Positions 7,337 through 63,884 of a stretch of DNA of 64,000 nucleotides are shown in pieces; position 1 is the stretch's first letter; each line of letters opens with the position of its first letter. The DNA is from a phage. The position numbers were made by a program, and so were the translations under genes. The stretch lies in the sequence record PZ540767.1; one strand, written 5' to 3'. The notes below the pieces were generated by a model. It made no database searches, was not told the origin of the DNA, and saw only the letters and a program-made list of their open reading frames with translations.

Positions 7337-9598
7337 ATGAACGATGAAGATCAGAGCGTAAGTGTAGCTTACCATGATCAACCTGTAGGCATCGAGACAG
7401 GATGGAAGAATCCACCTACTCTATCGATTCTTAAACAGGATCTGACCAATGCTACGCCTATTCATGATACTCAGACCGCTAAGATAGCGGAGTGGGAACG
7501 CTACCGTAAAGGTAAGACGACTACCCCTAAAGGTGAGGGGCAATCTAAAATTCAGCCTAAGCTTATTCGTAAGCAGGCTGAGTGGCGTTATGCTGCTTTG
7601 TCTGAGCCATTCTTATCTACCCCGGACTTATACAACATTAACCCAGTAACTTGGGAGGATGTTCCTGGTGCCAGACAAAACAGTTTAATTCTTAATAACC
7701 AATTCCAGACACAAATTGATCGTGTTGCTTTCATTGATGCCTACGTTCGTAGTGCAGTAGATGATGGTACGATCATTGTTCGTGTTGGCTGGGATTTTGA
7801 AGAAAGAGAAGTTCCTAAACAGGAGCCTGTATACTCTTTCTCAGTTGCTGCTGACATGATGGATATCTATCAAAAGATGGCACAGGTTGAGCAGGAAAAT
7901 CCTGTATACCTCTTAAATTATCCTCAGCAATTACAGGATGGTTACGAGATTCTCAAGAGTACAGGGATCCCTTATGCACTGACTCCTATTGGTGTAGCTA
8001 ACACTACCGAGATGAAGACAATTAAGAACTGTCCTACGGTAGAAGTCTGTGATTTAAATAACCTGTATGTAGACCCTTCTTGTAAGGGTGACCTGGATAA
8101 CGCTAAGTTTGTTATCTATTCTTTTGAGACGTCCCTTGCAGAACTTAAAGCAGATGGGCGATACAAGAACCTGGAGCAGATCAATGTCTCGAACAGTTCA
8201 CCTCTCACTGAGCAAAACTATGAAGCACCTAATGACCCCAACTTCCAGCCGGAGGGTAAACCTCGAAAAAGAATTGTTGCTTATGAGTATTGGGGATATT
8301 GGGATACTGATAATTCTGGTTTGTTACGCCCTATTGTAGCAACCTGGGTTAACGGTATATTAATCCGTCTGGAAGAGAACCCTTTCCCGGACAAGAAGAT
8401 TCCGTTTGTCTCAGTTCCTTACCTGCCTGTAAAAAACTCTATCTATGGCGAACCAGATGCAGAACTGCTAAAGGATAACCAGGATATCATCGGTGCAGTA
8501 ACCAGGGGTATGATTGACTTGCTTGGTAAGTCAGCTAACTCTCAAACTGGTTTTGCTAAGAACATGCTGGATGAAACTAACAAGCGTAAATTCCAACGTG
8601 GTGATGATTATGAGTTCAACCCTGGTACTGATCCCCGTGTAGGTATTCATACCCACACCTTCCCTGAGATCCCACAGTCTGCTCAGTTTATGCTTCAGCT
8701 TATGAACACTGATGCTGAATCATTGACTGGGGTTAAATCATTCTCTGGGGCAGAAGGTATTTCTGGTGCTGGTTTAGGTCAAACAGCTGCTGGTGTCCGT
8801 GGTGCATTGGATGCTGCTTCTAAACGTGAGCTTGGTATCCTTCGTCGTTTATCCAATGGCCTCATTAAGATTGGTCGTAAGATCATTGCAATGAATGCTG
8901 AGTTCCTGGATGAGGAAACTGTAGTACGTATTACTGAAGATGAGTTTGTGCCTATTCGTCGTGATGACTTACCAGGTAACTATGATCTTCGTCTTACCAT
9001 CTCTACAGCTGAGGATGATCAGGCTAAAGCTCAACAGCTTGCTTTCATGCTGCAAACCAGTGCTCAGACACTTGGCCCTGACTTCAGTAAGTTGTTCCTT
9101 GCTGAAATTGCACGCCTGAACAAGATGCCTGATATGGTTCGTAAGATTGAGCAGTATCAGCCTCAACCTGATCCGATGCAGCAGATGATGCAGCAGAAAC
9201 AACTTGAACTGCTTCAAGCTCAGATCAACCTTACTAATGCCCAAGCTATGGCTGAAGGTAGTAAAGGTCAGCTTAACCAAGTTAAGCAGGGTACTGAGAT
9301 GGCTAAAGCTGGTCAGATCCAATCCCAGACTGACAAGAATAGTCTCGACTTCTTGCAGACTCAGAATGGTGTCAAACATCAACAGGCTCTGGAGATGGAA
9401 CAAGTTAAGGGTGATACCTTACTTGCTGCCCAAGCTCTTAAACAGCAAGGCACTCTGGATCAGATTCAGGCACAGCATCAATCTGGTTTACTCCAGCAAC
9501 TTGCTAATACCAGGCTGAACCATAATAGCCAGCTTCAGTTGTTAAGAGCACAGAGGGATTTAAATCCTCCTACTCAAAGCACTGGTAATAACTCGTAA
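7337..9598 (+). CDS. portal protein (N4 gp59-like by size and synteny)
   Basis: 753 aa; first gene of the head module, two genes upstream of the capsid gene; Gln-rich C-terminus. Confidence 0.7.
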   Translation: MNDEDQSVSVAYHDQPVGIETGWKNPPTLSILKQDLTNATPIHDTQTAKIAEWERYRKGKTTTPKGEGQSKIQPKLIRKQAEWRYAALSEPFLSTPDLYNINPVTWEDVPGARQNSLILNNQFQTQIDRVAFIDAYVRSAVDDGTIIVRVGWDFEEREVPKQEPVYSFSVAADMMDIYQKMAQVEQENPVYLLNYPQQLQDGYEILKSTGIPYALTPIGVANTTEMKTIKNCPTVEVCDLNNLYVDPSCKGDLDNAKFVIYSFETSLAELKADGRYKNLEQINVSNSSPLTEQNYEAPNDPNFQPEGKPRKRIVAYEYWGYWDTDNSGLLRPIVATWVNGILIRLEENPFPDKKIPFVSVPYLPVKNSIYGEPDAELLKDNQDIIGAVTRGMIDLLGKSANSQTGFAKNMLDETNKRKFQRGDDYEFNPGTDPRVGIHTHTFPEIPQSAQFMLQLMNTDAESLTGVKSFSGAEGISGAGLGQTAAGVRGALDAASKRELGILRRLSNGLIKIGRKIIAMNAEFLDEETVVRITEDEFVPIRRDDLPGNYDLRLTISTAEDDQAKAQQLAFMLQTSAQTLGPDFSKLFLAEIARLNKMPDMVRKIEQYQPQPDPMQQMMQQKQLELLQAQINLTNAQAMAEGSKGQLNQVKQGTEMAKAGQIQSQTDKNSLDFLQTQNGVKHQQALEMEQVKGDTLLAAQALKQQGTLDQIQAQHQSGLLQQLANTRLNHNSQLQLLRAQRDLNPPTQSTGNNS

Positions 9599-44446: not shown

Positions 44447-44461
44447 TATATGAGGTTTATT

Positions 44462-44950
44462 ATGAAAATGTCGAATGAAGGACGCAAAGTAACTAAGTAT
44501 TTTGAGTCCCTTAAATTACGTGCTTACCCTGATCCTGCTACTGGGGGTAAACCATGGACTATTGGGTATGGTCATACTGGCCCAGATGTTTATCCTGGTT
44601 TGGCAATTTCGCAAACCAGAGCTGAACAGTTGCTTGATGCTGACCTTGCTAAGGCTGAAGCAGAAGTAAACAAGTATGGGCATAACCTTACCCAAGGTCA
44701 GTTCGATTGCCTTGTGGACATGGTATTTAATATGGGATCTGGTTTTATCCGGCCTGACAACATCAAGGGTGATTTTGATGACTTTGTTGCATCGGGTAAT
44801 ACTGCTGAGATGCGTAAACGTATTCCTCAATTCCGTATGGCCAACGGTAAAGTTATGAGAGGTTTAGTACGTCGTCGTGCTGCTAACCTTGCTACATGGG
44901 ACGGTAAGTCTGGTGATGAAGCAATTAAAATAGGGGTAAATGCTGCATGA
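44462..44950 (+). CDS. endolysin, GH24 T4-type lysozyme
   Basis: FESLKL...YPDPATGG...TIGYGHT catalytic E/D/T triad pattern and DCLVDMVFNMG motif; GAGG RBS before ATG 44462. Confidence 0.85.
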   Translation: MKMSNEGRKVTKYFESLKLRAYPDPATGGKPWTIGYGHTGPDVYPGLAISQTRAEQLLDADLAKAEAEVNKYGHNLTQGQFDCLVDMVFNMGSGFIRPDNIKGDFDDFVASGNTAEMRKRIPQFRMANGKVMRGLVRRRAANLATWDGKSGDEAIKIGVNAA

Positions 44951-45168
44951 AACTTGTAGAAAACTGGAAGTCAGCATGGAAGTGGTATTCTGTGCATATT
45001 ATGGTAGTGATCGTTGCACTTCCTGAAATCTGGAGTTACTTTCCACAGGAGTTTAAGGATTCATTACCTCCACATGCTCTTGCTGGATTAACAACTTTCC
45101 TGGGTATCTCAGCGATTGTTGCTCGTCTGGTTTCTCAGGAGAAACGTAATGATCAAGGATCTAATTAA
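44947..45168 (+). CDS. small membrane protein, candidate holin
   Basis: 73 aa; start overlaps endolysin stop (ATGA); two hydrophobic segments; inside lysis cassette. Confidence 0.45.
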   Translation: MKLVENWKSAWKWYSVHIMVVIVALPEIWSYFPQEFKDSLPPHALAGLTTFLGISAIVARLVSQEKRNDQGSN

Positions 45169-45658
45169 ACAGTATGCTGTTTTGTTAGGTTCTGTTCTGG
45201 CCCTGGCTTTACTTGCCGGGGCTTGTTACTTAACCTATGTTGTAACAGATAACCACTGGTCTGCTAAGTATTCTGGATTAGAACAGAAGTATAGTGATGC
45301 TTCTGCCAAAGCTACTCAGGAGGCCAGAGTCAAAGAATGGGAGTACCAAAACAATGTTGATGCAATCGCACAGCAAGGGGCTAAAGACCTCGCACAAGCT
45401 CGCTCTGACGCTGATATTGCCAATGCTTCTGTTAGCAGGTTGCAGCAACGGATCAACCGTTTACTTGCCAACACCAGCTCCGAAGATTCCGGCACTACCC
45501 AAAGAGGCAAGACAGCCAGAGAAGCCCTCGATCTGCTTGCCAACGTGCTCGAAAAATCTCTCGAACGAAACAGACAGTTGGCTGACTACGCCGACAAAGC
45601 CAGTAGTGCTGGATTCACCTGTGAAAAAGCCTACGACGCCATCCAATCAGGCAAGTAA
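45149..45658 (+). CDS. i-spanin (Rz-like)
   Basis: AGGAG RBS before ATG 45149; N-terminal TM helix then periplasmic coiled-coil region; an o-spanin-like ORF overlaps in another frame. Confidence 0.6.
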   Translation: MIKDLIKQYAVLLGSVLALALLAGACYLTYVVTDNHWSAKYSGLEQKYSDASAKATQEARVKEWEYQNNVDAIAQQGAKDLAQARSDADIANASVSRLQQRINRLLANTSSEDSGTTQRGKTAREALDLLANVLEKSLERNRQLADYADKASSAGFTCEKAYDAIQSGK

Positions 45659-45683
45659 TACTAAGTTGGTTTATTTCGTATAA
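45354..45683 (+). CDS. o-spanin (Rz1-like outer-membrane lipoprotein), out of frame within and past i-spanin
   Basis: Signal peptide ending in lipobox LLAGC, Pro-rich mature region; start is my best guess among in-frame ATGs. Confidence 0.5.
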   Translation: MLMQSHSKGLKTSHKLALTLILPMLLLAGCSNGSTVYLPTPAPKIPALPKEARQPEKPSICLPTCSKNLSNETDSWLTTPTKPVVLDSPVKKPTTPSNQASNTKLVYFV

Positions 45684-59060: not shown

Positions 59061-60242
59061 CTATACAAGCCCTTCCATTGTAAAGTGAACCACTTTGCCA
59101 AATTTTGGTACAAAGTTGGGGTTATCATAAACGAACCAGATTACAGGACGTTTAGGATCTACCAGATTGTGCTGGCTGAGGTAACCATCAGTCAGGATAA
59201 ACATCCCCAGTGATGCTTTATCACGGGCGAAGTCTTCGATGGTACTGTCGATGCAAGTACCGCCACCACCACTGAATTTAACATTGAGCAGATCACGTAC
59301 TGTACATATACGAGAGATATCCTTGATATCAGTATCAAACTGATACAGCTTTATCTCGTCTGGTTTAAACAGTTTCAGTACCTGATAAACACCACCTAAG
59401 AAGATGGTGAACTCTTTCTTGCCAATGGAACCAGATACGTCAATAGCCCATGAAATACGTCCCAGGGACTTACCACGGCGTTCTGGAGCAGTGATATCGT
59501 GTACCAGCATACGACGACGAAGACGTGACCATGTACGGCCAGGCTTACGTGTGACCTTCTCACAGAAGATCTTCAGATAGTGCTGCCAAGGAATTGGAGG
59601 ATTCAGGAGATCCTCAATACGGCGAGCCATATCCTTAGTACCACGCCCAAACTGTTTACCAGTCTGGTTTGCCTCAGCCATTTCAGCTGCCATGTTAGCA
59701 CCCAGTAAGATGCTATCAATTTGCTGCTTCTGGCTATCCTGTTCTTCTTGGGTCAGGGACTGTTTATTGAAATCAGGCATAGGGTTTTTACCCTTGTGAG
59801 TGCCTGGTTTCTTAGCCTCTTCCTGTTGAAGAATCCGGTATACCTGCATGGTGGTCATACCATCAAAGCGGGAGTCTACCAATACCTTAATAGTTGTAGG
59901 CATTGGCATTCCAGACTTTTTCAATTCCAGGTTGATTACATAGTCACCAGCCTGGTTCCACAGATCTTCATCCAGATCGGCAGGGAAAGTAGTGCAGTGT
60001 TCATGCACAATATGCCCAACTTCATGAGCCACCACAAAAGGGTGTTCAGCAGGTTTGAGCATCTCCATGAATTTCTGGTTGTAATACACGGTTAAAGAAT
60101 CCGTGTAAGCAGAATCACAAGGGTGCCCAGCGGGCACTTCCTTATGTTTTAATCTGAGGATCATTGAAGCCCAGAACACATACTTCTCATCCAAAGCCAG
60201 GGTAGTAAAGGCTTTGTCGAGGATCTTCTCAAGTGGTGACAT
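59061..60242 (-). CDS. metallopeptidase-motif protein with probable VWA-like C-terminal domain
   Basis: 393 aa; HExxH-type motif AHEVGHIVHEH in N-terminal half; adjacent to AAA+ ATPase; AAGGAA RBS. Confidence 0.5.
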   Translation of the reverse strand: MSPLEKILDKAFTTLALDEKYVFWASMILRLKHKEVPAGHPCDSAYTDSLTVYYNQKFMEMLKPAEHPFVVAHEVGHIVHEHCTTFPADLDEDLWNQAGDYVINLELKKSGMPMPTTIKVLVDSRFDGMTTMQVYRILQQEEAKKPGTHKGKNPMPDFNKQSLTQEEQDSQKQQIDSILLGANMAAEMAEANQTGKQFGRGTKDMARRIEDLLNPPIPWQHYLKIFCEKVTRKPGRTWSRLRRRMLVHDITAPERRGKSLGRISWAIDVSGSIGKKEFTIFLGGVYQVLKLFKPDEIKLYQFDTDIKDISRICTVRDLLNVKFSGGGGTCIDSTIEDFARDKASLGMFILTDGYLSQHNLVDPKRPVIWFVYDNPNFVPKFGKVVHFTMEGLV

Positions 60243-60251
60243 TGTAATTCC

Positions 60252-61304
60252 TTAGAAAAGTTCGTCAGCGTGGCGAGTACACCAGTTGCTTACCTCAGCA
60301 TTACTGCCGAGTTTAGGGTTACGTGCAATGATGCTGCGCATTGAGATTACCTGGTAGGACGCTGGCATACGCTCAATGAAGGTCATTGCTTTAGCAATGT
60401 TATCTTCAGCTACACCACGAGCCAGTACACCAGTCAGCGCATACATCCAGGATGGTTCATTAGTAGGGATACGAGCACCTTCAGGATCTTTGAGGATCTG
60501 TTCCATAGTTACTACTTTAGAGAAGTAGGTAACGAAGGTACGGAAGCTACGTCCAGTGGCTACACCTACAGTGCCGTCGATCATCGGTTCCCAGCCTTCA
60601 ATAGATTCCAGCGGGGTGATGAGCTTGGACAGCATAGACCAGGTACGAGCACACGCATGGGTATACTCGTTGGCATCCGGGTTGAATTTGTTGAATGCAT
60701 CTGGCTCGTAGTTGAGGAATGCCACAATACGAGGATCCAGAGTTGCAGTGAACAGTTTCAGCCAGTACTTCAGGTTTTCTTTGATGGTCAGGTTGACCAC
60801 ACGAGAACCCAGAGCAGTACCCAGAGAGGATGCAATTGCACCATCATCTTCACGGTTACCAGCAGCCATGATCCACATACGTTTGTGTACGTGTTTCTGG
60901 CCTACTTTCTTGTCCAGAATGAACTTGTAGCTTGCAGCTTTGGTGTCGTCAGCAGCAGAGGTCAGTTCGTCCAGCAGTACCAGGAAACCAGCGTACTGCT
61001 TGCCAGTTTTAGGGTTAACCGGGATAGGATCACCTTCCAGCGGGATTTCATCCAGAGGGATGTATTTACCCTTGGTTTTGTCATCGTTGAAGCCCAGTAC
61101 GCCATTCATGTCTACTGGTTCCATACCAGCCAAACGCAGGTCGATCAGCAGCAGGTTGTAAGTATCAGCTACTTCCTGCGCAATAGAGGATTTACCGAAG
61201 CCAGGAGCACCATACAGCATTGGTACAAGACCCTGCTTCATGATGTGGGCTACGGTAGTAGCAGCTTTGGAAATGTCGAGCGGAGTTGTCAGAGTCGTTG
61301 CCAT
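60252..61304 (-). CDS. AAA+ ATPase, MoxR-like
   Basis: 350 aa; Walker A GAPGFGKS, Walker B-like LLLIDL and LVLLDEL segments. Confidence 0.65.
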   Translation of the reverse strand: MATTLTTPLDISKAATTVAHIMKQGLVPMLYGAPGFGKSSIAQEVADTYNLLLIDLRLAGMEPVDMNGVLGFNDDKTKGKYIPLDEIPLEGDPIPVNPKTGKQYAGFLVLLDELTSAADDTKAASYKFILDKKVGQKHVHKRMWIMAAGNREDDGAIASSLGTALGSRVVNLTIKENLKYWLKLFTATLDPRIVAFLNYEPDAFNKFNPDANEYTHACARTWSMLSKLITPLESIEGWEPMIDGTVGVATGRSFRTFVTYFSKVVTMEQILKDPEGARIPTNEPSWMYALTGVLARGVAEDNIAKAMTFIERMPASYQVISMRSIIARNPKLGSNAEVSNWCTRHADELF

Positions 61305-62262: not shown

Positions 62263-62448
62263 TTACTTAATAGGTTTAAACGCATTAGCAGGTAATTTTT
62301 TAGCTCCTGCTACAGCATTCTGAATTGCTTTGATTCTCCCAAATAGGGTGTCAGGTTCACCTGGATAGGATCGGGCAAATTCAAAGCCAGAATGTTCAAG
62401 TTGCCCCTCTTTGGTAACAACCATGTATCCGAATTTAGTTACGATCAT
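62263..62448 (-). CDS. hypothetical protein (61 aa)
   Basis: Strong GGAGGA RBS before ATG at 62448. Confidence 0.45.
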   Translation of the reverse strand: MIVTKFGYMVVTKEGQLEHSGFEFARSYPGEPDTLFGRIKAIQNAVAGAKKLPANAFKPIK

Positions 62449-62532
62449 TAATCCTCCAGATTTTCTGAATAATTAGGGAATAGTGTGAATAACTTTCACA
62501 AACCTGGCTTACATGAAACCAGGTTTAGGAAG

Positions 62533-63369
62533 TTACTTAACAGGGACGAAAGGTACAGAAGCACCTGGCACCATAGTGGTAGGCATTACACCGTTCCACT
62601 TAGCAATGGCATCCAGTTGAATTACGTTCGGGTTAGCAGCGAGTGCTTCACCACGCAATTTGATAGCATCAGCTTCACCTTGGGCACGGATACGTGCAGA
62701 GTCGGATTCACCACGAGCTTTCGCACGTTCTTTCTCCGCTTCAGCTTCAGATTGTTTGATCTCTTGTTCACGCTGCAATGTAACCTGGTTTGCAGTTACT
62801 TTGGCGTTAATGGAAGCAATGACGGTTGGTGGGTATTCAGGCTTGCCCACATAGGACAGACTGATCACCTCAATACCAACTGGGGTCATTTCAGCCTGGA
62901 TCATACTGAGTGCTTGGGTCAAGAGATCAGATTTACCACCATCAATGAACTTGTCAGTAGTCATACGTGAGGCCAGACGGTTCAGGCTGTCAGCAATCTT
63001 CTGTTGCAGATCGCTGTCGGTGATTTCATCCACACCTTTACGATAGGTCTGGAAGACTGTCGCTACTTTAGTCGGGTTGACTTTATAAGCCACACCGATG
63101 TGATAGCCGATGGTTGTACCGTCAGACATTTGGAACGTAAAGATCCCGTCGTAGGTTTTCATCTGCTTGAAGGTCGGGAACGTGTACAGGTCTTCGTTCC
63201 AGCCGATCCAGTAACGGCCTACACCTTTCACTTGCTGTTCAACACCCTTCTCGTCACCGAGACGGTTAACGATAATACCCACGTTACCTGGTTCGACACG
63301 CTCATAGCAGCCTGTCAGCGAGGTCATTGCAACGACTGCCAGAATGCAGCCCATGATAAATTTACGCAT
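62533..63369 (-). CDS. SPFH/band-7 (stomatin/prohibitin-like) domain lipoprotein
   Basis: Signal peptide MRKFIMGCILAVVAMTSLTGC with lipobox LTGC, then SPFH-like core and C-terminal Ala/Glu-rich coiled coil; ORF-track start at 63510 is a non-ATG extension. Confidence 0.55.
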   Translation of the reverse strand: MRKFIMGCILAVVAMTSLTGCYERVEPGNVGIIVNRLGDEKGVEQQVKGVGRYWIGWNEDLYTFPTFKQMKTYDGIFTFQMSDGTTIGYHIGVAYKVNPTKVATVFQTYRKGVDEITDSDLQQKIADSLNRLASRMTTDKFIDGGKSDLLTQALSMIQAEMTPVGIEVISLSYVGKPEYPPTVIASINAKVTANQVTLQREQEIKQSEAEAEKERAKARGESDSARIRAQGEADAIKLRGEALAANPNVIQLDAIAKWNGVMPTTMVPGASVPFVPVK

Positions 63370-63565
63370 GTTTGATCTTCTTTTTGATTTGACGATAAAC
63401 GAAAGTGACCACCAGAGCAGGCCACACCAGAGCACCAGCAATGCCGATGAACACGAGGATGGTATCTTTAGCTGATACCAATGAAGGCAATATGCCTCCA
63501 TACAGGACACCTGACAGGAGTAAGATCACTACTCCATACAGGTAGAGTTTCAGATATTTATTCAT
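63362..63565 (-). CDS. small two-TM membrane protein, possible partner of SPFH protein
   Basis: 67 aa; two hydrophobic segments and basic C-terminus; 8-nt overlap with SPFH gene start. Confidence 0.45.
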   Translation of the reverse strand: MNKYLKLYLYGVVILLLSGVLYGGILPSLVSAKDTILVFIGIAGALVWPALVVTFVYRQIKKKIKHA

Positions 63566-63884
63566 CTGTTTTGCGATTCCTTAAACCAGGGATTGTGTAG
63601 GCTTTGGAGATATACTCCCCAATATAGAAATACTCATGAATTTCACTTTCAATCATTCGTACTTCAGAGCCTGCATCAGTCAGTACGGTGTAACAGGGTT
63701 CTGGCTTAAAGTCGGCAATGCTCATTGTGGATCCGATTTTGGTAATGAAAGCATTACCTAACCGACGTCCATCTTTTGTGCATAGCTGACGATGTAATTC
63801 CAGAGTCCCGGACGGATCGTAACGTTCAGCCCAGTCAGGCAGGACTTCACGTTTAAACTGTTCGTCATACTCTTCGTCTGTCAT
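63558..63884 (-). CDS. hypothetical protein (108 aa)
   Basis: Strong AAGGAGG RBS; start overlaps stop of a partial upstream ORF (ATGA). Confidence 0.45.
   Translation of the reverse strand: MTDEEYDEQFKREVLPDWAERYDPSGTLELHRQLCTKDGRRLGNAFITKIGSTMSIADFKPEPCYTVLTDAGSEVRMIESEIHEYFYIGEYISKAYTIPGLRNRKTDE

Follow-up and report, generated by a model that had tools for sequence, protein, structure and literature searches.

The DNA analysed here, a window of 64,000 nucleotides from sequence record PZ540767.1, belongs to a Klebsiella N4-like phage, which bore out the phage origin assumed in the initial annotation. It carries two overlapping genes that, by sequence comparison, are orthologous to gp19 and gp20 of coliphage N4, and we are highly confident that they constitute an SPFH-plus-partner module. 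We propose, with a probability of roughly 45%, that this gp19/gp20-type unit is a phage-made, periplasm-facing SPFH scaffold which would form on the host inner membrane during lytic growth. Both reading frames, the SPFH frame and that of a 67-aa protein with two transmembrane (TM) segments, were confirmed on the minus strand at the following coordinates:

63362..63565, minus strand: partner gene, coding for a 67-aa two-TM hairpin protein (ORF and translation; N4 gp19 orthologue; PHROG 1130)
62533..63369, minus strand: gene of the SPFH/Band-7 lipoprotein precursor, 278 aa (N4 gp20 orthologue; PHROG 200)
63362..63369, minus strand: 8-nt overlap, ATGCGTAA on the coding strand, with the partner stop codon lying over the SPFH start codon (sequence; identical arrangement in N4)

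The translation of the partner gene is MNKYLKLYLYGVVILLLSGVLYGGILPSLVSAKDTILVFIGIAGALVWPALVVTFVYRQIKKKIKHA. The mechanical list of reading frames runs the SPFH frame on to a GTG at 63510; we took the ATG at 63369, the biologically sensible start of this gene. With this start, the two-TM gene runs 8 nt into the beginning of the lipoprotein gene, exactly as the initial annotation had described. A single message encodes both proteins, the stop codon of one lying over the start codon of the other, and the genes are translationally coupled through this overlap. The small ORF matched PHROG 1130 (E 2.1e-18) and the large one PHROG 200 (E 1.3e-98), and comparison of the small gene with one orthologue gave 9, 2 and 23 differences at codon positions 1, 2 and 3, thus mostly at the third. 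Because of these matches and of this third-position bias, both ORFs look like genuine genes.

The similarity to N4 extends to the surroundings of the pair. The SPFH lipoprotein was 64% identical to N4 gp20 over 278 aa, without gaps (E 1e-139), and the partner matched N4 gp19 with 41% identity (tblastn, E 2e-8). In N4, gp19 (8057..8263) and gp20 (8256..9092) share the same 8-nt overlap, the lipobox of gp20 is followed by Tyr as in the window protein, and the pair has the RNAPII genes on one side and AAA/VWA-like and replication genes on the other, likewise as in the window. The upstream neighbours differ: N4 carries a P22 gp17-like gene, gp18, directly before the pair, and the window an unrelated 108-aa gene (63558..63884). 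We found no gp18 homologue within the window, about 12 kb of the genome lying outside it. We considered whether the 108-aa gene might be the third gene of the module, or stand in for gp18, and rejected both ideas, since it shows no similarity to gp18; the upstream neighbour was different in each phage family examined, which argues against its being part of the module. The literature searched yielded no published function for N4 gp19 or gp20.

The precursor of the SPFH protein starts with MRKFIMGCILAVVAMTSLTGC, in which a basic n-region (MRK) and a hydrophobic core lead to a lipobox L-T-G-C. Its features are:

63310..63369, minus strand: lipoprotein signal peptide, aa 1-20 (sequence)
63307..63318, minus strand: lipobox L18-T-G-C21; lipidation is predicted at Cys21, with Tyr at +2 and Glu at +3
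62737..63300, minus strand: alpha/beta domain of SPFH (Band_7) type, Pfam PF01145 match at aa 24-211; model strands and helices at 21-178
62602..62829, minus strand: long Ala/Glu/Arg-rich helix, aa 181-245, and short helix, aa 247-256 (AlphaFold model); the 'wall' helices of SPFH cages
62536..62601, minus strand: C-terminal tail, conserved as K257-W-N-G..P..M.PG...PF..VK and containing two short strands (alignment and model)

The lipobox noticed earlier is thus present, its G20 and C21 were invariant across 38 aligned SPFH homologues, and the precursor agrees with the bacterial lipoprotein pattern [LVI][ASTVI][GAS]C with conserved Cys. The SPFH-like core was confirmed over the whole domain by Pfam Band_7 (PF01145; score 104.2 bits with the cut-off at 23.6, E 1.1e-29, alignment from position 2 to 176 of the 176-position profile), and its fold was backed by an AlphaFold model and by Foldseek. 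The monomer model (mean pLDDT 75) comprised the SPFH domain, a helix of 65 residues and C-terminal strands at 264-266 and 274-276, residues 241-278 being of low confidence (pLDDT 54-63). What had been called an Ala/Glu-rich coiled coil appeared there as one long helix, rich in Ala, Glu and Arg (residues 181-245). Residues K257, W258, G260, P263 and P273 of the tail were invariant in the homologue alignment, and by analogy with related assemblies this tail is a candidate cap which might close a cage.

Foldseek alignments (E 1e-13 to 1e-8, 240-310 aligned columns) gave full-length matches to prohibitin (1.6e-13), HflK/C (2.6e-13 for 7vhq; also 7wi3 and 9cz2), erlin, stomatin, flotillin and QmcA (8z5g, 1.3e-8). 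The model and these matches thus agree on an SPFH fold with long helices, as in the solved full-length relatives. At the sequence level, the prohibitin-2 coiled coil gave a hit (E 1.5e-4), and QmcA a weak one. By its predicted fold the lipoprotein may assemble as a membrane-attached ring or cage, the model being that of a monomer, which does not give the size of an oligomer. The best NCBIfam matches were HflC (TIGR01932, 24.3 bits against a cut-off of 134.4) and HflK (TIGR01933, 20.4 against 159.4); orthology to HflK/HflC was rejected because these scores are far under the cut-offs, there is one SPFH gene and a lipobox takes the place of the TM anchor. Membership of a catalogued anti-phage defence system was rejected as well, neither protein having matched the PADLOC-DB 2.0 defence models at E<=0.01.

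The partner protein has two hydrophobic segments, with hydropathy peaks at aa 5-21 and aa 36-52, arranged as follows:

63488..63547, minus strand: partner TM helix 1 (about aa 7-26), with a basic N-terminus before it (K3, K6); hydropathy, boundaries set by eye from the alignment
63461..63487, minus strand: conserved turn P27-S-L-V-S-A-K-D-T35 (alignment of 11 partners), probably on the periplasmic side
63395..63460, minus strand: partner TM helix 2 (about aa 36-57), hydropathy peak at aa 36-52
63365..63394, minus strand: basic C-terminal tail RQIKKKIKHA (sequence), probably on the cytoplasmic side

A word-indexed protein search with the 67-aa sequence reached close relatives only (57 matches, 72-98% identical), and distant partners were gathered by gene context rather than by sequence search. 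The 11 aligned partners, from N4-like, lambdoid, P1-like, rV5-like, Pseudomonas and Burkholderia phages, share the motif LYG..(L/V)P.(L/M)(V/I)S..D(T/S)..V..G, in which P27 and G41 were invariant and S31 and V38 at least 90% conserved. The turn motif is present again in single-chain fused proteins.

The initial annotation had compared the two genes to a bacterial pair of an SPFH and an NfeD-like membrane protein. The adjacency of an SPFH gene and a membrane-partner gene stood; the NfeD part did not. Neither the window partner nor any of the 11 diverse partners matched NfeD (Pfam PF01957) at E<=1, and a PDB sequence search with the 67-aa protein gave no match. The NfeD family is defined by a soluble domain, for which a protein of 67 aa made up almost wholly of two TM helices leaves no space. 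NfeD identity was rejected on these grounds. A holin identity was equally rejected, since the window partner matched no holin family in Pfam and the lysis cassette lies elsewhere on the other strand; one of the 11 partners had a weak holin-family match (E 0.038).

That the SPFH and two-TM proteins work as a functional pair, as had been suggested, is supported by synteny across phage families, by close linkage in viral loci and by natural fusions. SPFH relatives were found in 689 of about 50,700 phage records, Gram-positive and Bacteroidota phages included, and, by blastn with an E. coli prophage copy, in 720 of 5,426 complete E. coli genomes (13%). The two-TM ORF ends 1-20 nt inside the SPFH start in 78 of 80 IMG/VR viral loci. 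This arrangement recurs in N4, Erwinia S6, a lambdoid E. coli prophage, P2-like P88, P1-like RCS47, Pseudomonas U2 and Burkholderia BcepF1, and a membrane-protein gene also lies directly upstream of the SPFH gene in phiCbK, Staphylococcus Kayvirus and PhiSH19. Single-chain fusions, running from partner through linker and signal peptide or lipobox to SPFH, account for at least 13 of the 150 distant representatives (clustered at 50% identity); P0053 is a further one. One fusion gene stands two genes away from an Acb2/Tad1-type gene. Among 114 distant relatives whose N-termini were parsed, 87 have a lipobox and 27 a plain N-terminal TM anchor in its place.

By gene order, the pair sits in what we take as the early-lytic operons of four phage types, N4, lambdoid, P2-like and P1-like. 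The lambdoid prophage carries it co-directionally, flanked by the S24 repressor and integrase; P88 has it between cox and the replication endonuclease, and RCS47 in place of tciABC within the C1-operator-controlled ban operon of P1. In both N4 and the Vi01-like PhiSH19 the pair comes after a P22 gp17-like protein annotated 'superinfection exclusion'. Klebsiella phage P184 (annotated genus Efbeekayvirus), with flanks about 95% identical, has three unrelated small ORFs in the slot instead; the slot is therefore exchangeable and the module dispensable. This context is compatible with an accessory, conflict-type role. In Staphylococcus Kayvirus the corresponding pair, MbpV/MbpS, is immediately downstream of the endolysin LysK; MbpS and MbpV are not involved in the results of a Kayvirus escape-mutant paper. 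The window has its own complete lysis cassette (44450..45683), 17 kb from the pair:

44450..44950, opposite strand to the pair: Phage_lysozyme endolysin of the lysis cassette
44947..45168, opposite strand to the pair: gp62-like DUF7940 of the lysis cassette
45116..45658, opposite strand to the pair: DUF2514 spanin of the lysis cassette, with an embedded ORF carrying a LAGC lipobox

A separate and complete cassette on the other strand disfavours a direct part of the pair in the lysis cassette.

On which side of the membrane the SPFH domain lies is best seen from the relatives. Basic flanks of TM helices stay cytoplasmic by the positive-inside rule; the basic tail of the partner thus suggests a cytoplasmic C-terminus, and so do the fused homologues, which continue at this point into a linker and an in-to-out signal peptide. 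In such fused chains the order is forced, from a hairpin ending inside through the signal peptide to an SPFH domain on the outside. Asp at +2, the classical signal for Lol avoidance and inner-membrane retention, was found in 73 of 80 close relatives, and Tyr (C-Y-E) in the other 7, the window phage and other N4-likes. The fusions, the TM-anchored relatives and this predominance of Asp+2 together point to the periplasmic face of the inner membrane, as for HflK/C. Against this location, the textbook +2 rule would have Tyr+2 send the lipoprotein to the outer membrane; aromatic residues at +2 are, however, said to give retention, reportedly a finding of Seydel et al. in 1999, and our literature search on Tyr+2 lipoprotein sorting found no paper. 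On balance, a periplasm-facing inner-membrane scaffold is probable.

A simple model of the module would then run as follows. The 67-aa protein would insert as a hairpin with both termini inside and its P-x-L-V-S-x-x-D-T turn in the periplasm. The 278-aa precursor, judging from its conserved lipobox, would be exported and lipidated at Cys21, and the mature lipoprotein, as its relatives suggest, kept on the outer leaflet of the inner membrane and not moved to the outer membrane. Through its 65-residue helix and C-terminal strands it could oligomerise into a ring or cage like those of the matched SPFH assemblies, to which the hairpin partner might dock or by which it might be enclosed. More speculatively, the membrane patch fenced off in this manner could render the infected cell refractory to further envelope insults, mainly the entry of DNA from superinfecting phages, or else lysis from without, on the analogy of T4 Imm and Sp. 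An early role in envelope shielding or superinfection exclusion is our best guess and a tentative one; exclusion in particular is speculative and argued from guilt by association. To our knowledge, phage exclusion has never been demonstrated for an SPFH protein. Any exclusion mechanism would have to be generic, given that members of the family are known from phages using widely differing receptors and from Gram-positive hosts. The superinfection-exclusion system of N4 is still to be identified (PMC12642591), and the pair is a concrete candidate for it.

We also considered a wider version of this proposal, which we hold doubtful: gp19/gp20-type pairs could be a distinct new viral SPFH class acting as an early, generic inner-membrane shield, and in N4 they would be the missing exclusion component that feeds lysis inhibition. 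The phages of such a class would be N4-like, lambdoid, P1-like, P2-like, rV5-like, Vi01-like, Kayvirus, jumbo and Lak phages. Its cage would be lipid-anchored or fused to its own two-helix partner, and the shield directed against superinfecting phages or membrane-depolarising abortive-infection effectors.

The main rival to a shielding scaffold, unlikely in our judgement, is mimicry of HflK/C: on the periplasmic side, FtsH hexamers would be taken into the phage cage or kept out of it, and membrane or phage proteins would be turned over differently as a result; the hairpin partner would provide the TM contact for which HflK/C use N-terminal helices of their own. Phage lambda targets FtsH with CIII, encoded in its early-left operon, and the lambdoid copies of the pair sit in this very operon; the universality of FtsH would also suit a family that reaches Gram-positive and Bacteroidota phages. 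Some of the best structural matches are to HflK/C (7vhq, 7wi3, 9cz2), HflC and HflK are the best NCBIfam matches, and theirs is the sole matched bacterial SPFH complex known to reach into the periplasm (PMC12048511). However, the bit scores of 24 against 134 and 20 against 159 are far too low, prohibitin and erlin match equally well, so that nothing is specific to HflK/C, and a single SPFH gene without an N-terminal TM helix is not a heteromeric pair. Contact with FtsH is moreover hypothetical, and a strictly virulent phage makes no lysogeny decision that could be tuned. Quite improbable, in turn, is a device for lysis timing or membrane integrity, which would stabilise the energised membrane or restrain a holin-like hairpin, delay lysis and raise the burst, and so play a part in the lysis inhibition that N4 typically shows. 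Class II holins and pinholins are of similar size and two-TM layout, and the partner resembles them in both; the position of MbpV/MbpS directly after LysK would also suit such a device, and N4 lysis inhibition is unexplained (PMC12642591). The complete lysis cassette elsewhere in the window speaks against it, as do the single weak holin match among 11 partners and the existence of P184 without the pair. More than 60 rapid-lysis mutants of N4 fall into four classes, lysis-cassette (gp61, gp63), vRNAP gp50, DTR and miscellaneous (PMC12642591), and the terms gp19 and gp20 are absent from the main text of that preprint.

A still smaller chance, very low in our estimate, goes to an outer-membrane lipoprotein that blocks receptors like T5 Llp or phi80 Cor, carried by Lol transport so that SPFH lies beneath the outer membrane and the phage's own receptor is masked. 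Its best arguments are Tyr instead of Asp at +2 in the window phage and other N4-likes, and the Pasteurella prophage protein PM0222, reported in outer-membrane vesicles (PMC9872710). Yet Asp+2 prevails in 73 of 80 close relatives, fused and TM-anchored relatives are unable to leave the inner membrane, the conserved partner is an integral membrane hairpin, and the family is common to phages with unrelated receptors and to Gram-positive phages, which have no outer membrane. Capture of a bacterial SPFH-NfeD operon, cytoplasm-facing like QmcA-YbbJ, is hardly credible and already contradicted by the tests reported here: an SPFH gene does adjoin a small membrane-protein gene, and QmcA (8z5g) is both a structural and a weak sequence match, but none of the 11 partners matched NfeD at E<=1, the small protein had no PDB match, and signal peptide and lipobox place the SPFH domain outside the cytoplasm. 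A role in the virion or in adsorption, hypothesised in PMC13239085, is unlikely for an exported lipoprotein in a replication-type gene neighbourhood, of which just 3 peptides appeared in a Vi01-like virion proteome. Lysogenic conversion or virulence, as for PM0222, was rejected because the N4-like phage is virulent and temperate relatives carry the pair in repressor-controlled early-lytic operons.

The interest of a phage-made SPFH scaffold lies partly in its size and partly in N4 biology. We found no functional study of the phage SPFH pair in the searchable literature, and a 2026 paper states that SPFH presence in phages "remains unclear". Structures of the matched SPFH cages (HflK/C, prohibitin, stomatin, flotillin, erlin) were released from 2022 to 2026, and the effect of these cages on the enclosed membrane is debated. 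The phage version is compact, with about 280 residues and a dedicated partner of 60-70 residues, at times fused to it. Being small, dispensable and found in tractable N4, P1-like and lambdoid phages, the module offers an accessible system for SPFH-cage function. For N4 itself, an exclusion system is the key missing piece for lysis inhibition, according to the 2025 N4 lysis preprint (PMC12642591).

Among known systems, the E. coli HflK/HflC-FtsH complex is alike in its SPFH domain, long wall helix, C-terminal cap region and full-length structural matches. HflK/C assembles as a hetero-oligomer from two paralogues that each carry an N-terminal TM helix, whereas the phage encodes a single SPFH protein with a predicted lipid anchor and, separately, the hairpin. 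QmcA-YbbJ (8z5g) similarly combines an SPFH gene beside a membrane-partner gene with a cage-type fold; unlike it, the phage partner has no NfeD domain and the phage SPFH protein carries an export signal. In E. coli QmcA-YbbJ the SPFH orientation is the opposite, cytoplasm-facing, and the soluble domain of YbbJ is inside the cage. T4 Imm is a small two-TM inner-membrane protein and Sp a membrane-anchored, periplasmic one; both are early and protect the infected cell from secondary phages, and their genes are neither adjacent nor coupled. The likeness to Imm and Sp is a functional analogy only, with no relationship in sequence or fold and no SPFH domain. HflK/C lies in the inner membrane with SPFH reaching into the periplasm (PMC12048511), the side that is also probable for the phage protein. 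Periplasmic and membrane-bound exclusion proteins are mentioned in PMC12642591. In Bacillus subtilis, small membrane proteins of the pspA operon recruit an SPFH protein in the envelope-stress module YdjG/YdjH-YdjI (SamGHI), as bioRxiv 10.64898/2026.02.06.704340 describes; this system is cellular and its SPFH protein cytosolic, and the likeness is one of description only. Finally, PM0222 of Pasteurella multocida, an HflK/C-like protein of a prophage island, is a virulence factor secreted via outer-membrane vesicles that signals through TLR1/2 (PMC9872710); that study addresses virulence and not a role for the phage. PM0222, compared here by description and not by sequence, is the sole prophage-island SPFH protein with experimental data that we found.

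The two genes of the pair lie on the minus strand and overlap by 8 nt, exactly as the initial annotation had it:

63362..63565, minus: small partner ORF, 67 aa, MNKYLKLYLYGVVILLLSGVLYGGILPSLVSAKDTILVFIGIAGALVWPALVVTFVYRQIKKKIKHA
62533..63369, minus: SPFH gene, 278-aa product from the ATG at 63369, beginning MRKFIMGCILAVVAMTSLTGC-YERVEPGNVG
63362..63369, minus: overlap of the two genes, 8 nt, ATGCGTAA

The mechanical ORF call for the SPFH gene opens at GTG 63510; we took the gene as 62533..63369 because ATG 63369 is the start that yields a signal peptide. Simple hydropathy gave two TM segments for the partner. With two lysines in its N-terminus and a strongly basic C-terminus (RQIKKKIKHA), the partner would have both ends in the cytoplasm under the positive-inside rule and its short turn PSLVSAKDT in the periplasm. 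We also observed a perfect 8-bp inverted repeat with an 11-nt loop (AAACCTGG ... CCAGGTTT, 62500..62526), which opens 7 nt past the SPFH stop codon and precedes the GGAGG ribosome-binding site of the next gene; the terminator scan did not report it because it has no T-run.

The larger product had been proposed to be a lipoprotein with an SPFH-like core, and the SPFH fold and the lipobox were borne out. Pfam Band_7 matched over its entire profile (score 104 bits, cut-off 23.6, E 1.1e-29) and PHROG 200 ("lipoprotein") at E 1.3e-98. The AlphaFold2 model, obtained from 38 homologues (mean pLDDT 75), showed an alpha/beta SPFH domain (21-178), an unbroken helix (181-245), a second, short one (247-256) and a pair of short strands at the C-terminus. 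By Foldseek against the PDB, this model aligned over 240-310 columns to subunits of solved SPFH complexes: prohibitin 8rrh (1.6e-13), HflK/C (7vhq, 7wi3, 9cz2), erlin1/2, stomatin, flotillin and QmcA 8z5g (1.3e-8). Lipobox residues G20 and C21 and a C-terminal K-W-N-G..P motif were invariant in the alignment of homologues. The nearest NCBIfam models were HflC (24 bits, cut-off 134) and HflK (20 bits, cut-off 159), and orthology to HflK/C was ruled out because these scores lie far under the cut-offs.

By database match the region resembles 76-kb Klebsiella and Enterobacter N4-like phages; the window also carries a 3,560-aa ORF, by its length a candidate for the virion RNA polymerase that N4-like phages encode. 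Phage Tribble_ER49 annotates both genes, as "membrane protein" and "lipoprotein". The N4 counterparts, gp19 (8057..8263) and gp20 (8256..9092), share the identical 8-nt overlap, and gp20 is 64% identical to the window protein over 278 residues without gaps; the pair is thus the orthologue of an N4 gene pair already catalogued. Comparison of 62533..63565 with PP738785 (locus L001) and OY979417 revealed that the junction of the two genes is mosaic: the small protein is 98.5% identical to that of Tribble_ER49 but the SPFH gene only ~71%, whereas in phage K17alpha62 SPFH is the closer of the two (99.3%) and the small protein the more distant (77.6%). Alleles of partner and scaffold are therefore reshuffled by recombination. 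Further along, the N4 gp25-like gene of the window (59061..61304, minus) is called 'HNH endonuclease' in RefSeq records; its product instead combines a DUF2201 putative metallopeptidase (HExxH) with a VWA-like domain. An AAA ATPase gene (weak match) adjoins it, and this ATPase also gave weak PADLOC IetA hits.

The pairing of the two proteins, also part of the first interpretation, is real on three independent grounds: synteny, a common partner motif and Rosetta-stone fusions. The gene of a small membrane protein adjoins the SPFH start or overlaps it in Erwinia S6, a lambdoid E. coli prophage (61-aa partner), P2-like P88, Pseudomonas U2, Burkholderia BcepF1, phiCbK and Staphylococcus Staph1N (MbpV/MbpS). 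Small unannotated two-TM ORFs likewise lie directly 5′ of the SPFH gene in P1-like RCS47 (locus L011, 2501..2689) and Vi01-like PhiSH19 (72 aa; locus L093, 1932..2150, minus), and in PVP-SE1 a motif-bearing two-TM gene is one gene away. In 78 of 80 IMG/VR loci, the end of a two-TM ORF falls within the SPFH gene, 1-20 nt past its start. The turn motif LYG..(L/V)P.(L/M)(V/I)S..D(T/S)..V..G is common to partners of N4-like, lambdoid, P1-like, rV5-like, Pseudomonas and Burkholderia phages, with P27 and G41 invariant in their alignment. The inter-helix loop of the PhiSH19 ORF is very basic, which suggests a topology opposite to that of the N4-type partner.

Among the best 150 representatives at 50% identity, at least 13 single-chain fusions were found by script (17 by eye), including P0182, P0189, P0197, P0206, P0222 and others (loci L097, L098, L100); P0053, on a 94-kb contig, is a further one. 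Their layout runs from motif-bearing hairpin through a linker and a signal peptide with lipobox to the SPFH domain, and those looked up have phage-type early, replication or recombination genes as neighbours. An Acb2/Tad1-hairpin gene (anti-CBASS/Thoeris sponge family) is found two genes away from P0197. As the fusions keep the lipobox, signal peptidase II might cleave them into two proteins again.

Since such fusions need a cytoplasmic hairpin C-terminus followed by an outward-crossing signal peptide, the SPFH domain would be extracytoplasmic and initially tethered to the inner membrane. In 27 of 114 parsed relatives the lipobox gives way to a plain TM anchor at the N-terminus; MbpS of Staphylococcus, a host without an outer membrane, is likewise TM-anchored at its N-terminus. 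Of the 80 closest viral relatives, 73 have Asp directly after the lipid-modified Cys, and Asp at +2 is the classical Lol-avoidance (inner-membrane retention) signal in Enterobacteriaceae. The N4-like clade, including the window, has C-Y-(E/D) instead (7/80); by the textbook rule Tyr+2 is ambiguous, and Seydel et al. reportedly noted in 1999 that aromatic +2 residues may also retain lipoproteins. Taken together, fusions, TM-anchored relatives and Asp+2 point to a family that acts at the inner membrane, on its periplasmic face. In the best-supported mechanism, an architecture to which we give a probability of about 0.65, the SPFH protein would form a phage-built, periplasm-facing ring or cage on the inner membrane, and the hairpin partner would work together with it.

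What such an assembly would do is read from gene context. In N4 and the window, the pair lies between RNAPII genes and AAA/VWA-like and replication genes, a position in N4 that we take to be of the middle class. It is found between S24 repressor and integrase, in the same direction, in the lambdoid prophage, between cox and a replication endonuclease in P88, and in RCS47 at the exact place of tciABC in P1's C1-operator-controlled ban operon. All these settings are early-lytic rather than those of prophage-expressed morons. P1 itself (locus L096, 1634..2330) has a TerB-like tciA/tciB/tciC cassette flanked by upl and by the tRNA gene that precedes ban, and in P1-like phage-plasmids the pair takes the place of this cassette, position unchanged. 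In Klebsiella phage P184 (annotated genus Efbeekayvirus), with flanking genes ~95% identical to those of the window, three unrelated small ORFs (61, 57 and 59 aa), of which two encode membrane proteins, stand in for the two-TM, SPFH and 61-aa genes (locus L102, 2285..2894 vs window 62263..63565). This slot, bounded by conserved genes for 108-aa and 227-aa products, is an exchangeable hotspot, and the pair is dispensable. In N4 and PhiSH19 the pair comes after a P22 gp17-like protein annotated "superinfection exclusion" (N4 gp18, locus L003 2669..2983, vs L093 2138..2458: 56% identical, E 7e-36), a three-gene synteny common to Schitoviridae and Ackermannviridae; no gp18 homologue was found in the window.

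From this context we tentatively favour an early accessory envelope shield, which would exclude superinfecting phages or protect against lysis from without. A somewhat weaker candidate on the same grounds is a modulator of FtsH that resembles HflK/C. A lysis-timing or membrane-stabilising device is improbable, for the window has its complete lysis cassette elsewhere (44450..45683, plus):

44450..44950, plus: Phage_lysozyme endolysin
44947..45168, plus: gp62-like DUF7940 protein, 73 aa
45116..45658, plus: DUF2514 i-spanin, with an embedded ORF in another frame carrying an LAGC lipobox

By tblastn, no homologues of N4 gp63 (pinholin) and gp61 were detected in the window. In Kayvirus Staph1N (locus L006, 1193..2292), MbpV (one TM and a charged tail) and MbpS (an SPFH protein whose N-terminus bears a TM) lie directly 3′ of endolysin LysK; no other gene context seen points to lysis. 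A blocker at the outer membrane, as Llp is, also judged from context, is very unlikely.

By tblastn, the SPFH protein matched 689 phage records, from Staphylococcus Kayvirus, Pseudomonas, Erwinia, Klebsiella, Escherichia, Burkholderia, Caulobacter phiCbK-like and Salmonella phages to Prevotella Lak megaphages, jumbo, P1-like and Stx phages. A word-indexed protein search returned 825 matches at E<=0.001; of the best 120, many are 65-73% identical copies in Enterobacterales genome assemblies. An exhaustive HMMER scan of 1.84 billion representatives gave 2,777 at E<=1e-3, 955 at <=1e-10 and 192 at <=1e-30. The E. coli prophage copy was present in 720 of 5,426 complete E. coli genomes by blastn, at 418 chromosomal and 394 plasmid places. 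The product names that public records give to this family are in places wrong or inconsistent: 'serine protease', 'peptidyl-tRNA hydrolase', 'putative transposase', 'tail length tape measure protein | portal protein'.

In the searchable literature, phage SPFH genes appear as annotations only, and the experimental work found is limited to a Pasteurella prophage-island protein investigated as a TLR1/2 agonist (PMC9872710). According to a June 2026 paper on an N4-like phage, the reason for the gene's presence "remains unclear". The main text of a November 2025 N4 lysis preprint (PMC12642591) contains neither "gp19" nor "gp20" and describes the N4 superinfection-exclusion system as uncharacterised. 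The window pair is an ordinary instance of a catalogued phage family, one that would be tractable to study.

The partner had been labelled NfeD-like, a part of the initial annotation that did not stand beside SPFH fold, lipobox and pairing: neither it nor 11 diverse partners matched NfeD at E<=1, the 67-aa protein has no room for a soluble domain, and no PDB sequence match was found for it. QmcA-YbbJ, an SPFH-NfeD pair, faces the cytoplasm, the side opposite to that proposed here for the phage family. HflK/C, in contrast, extends to the periplasmic side of the inner membrane, according to PMC12048511, and would share its side with the phage SPFH proteins.
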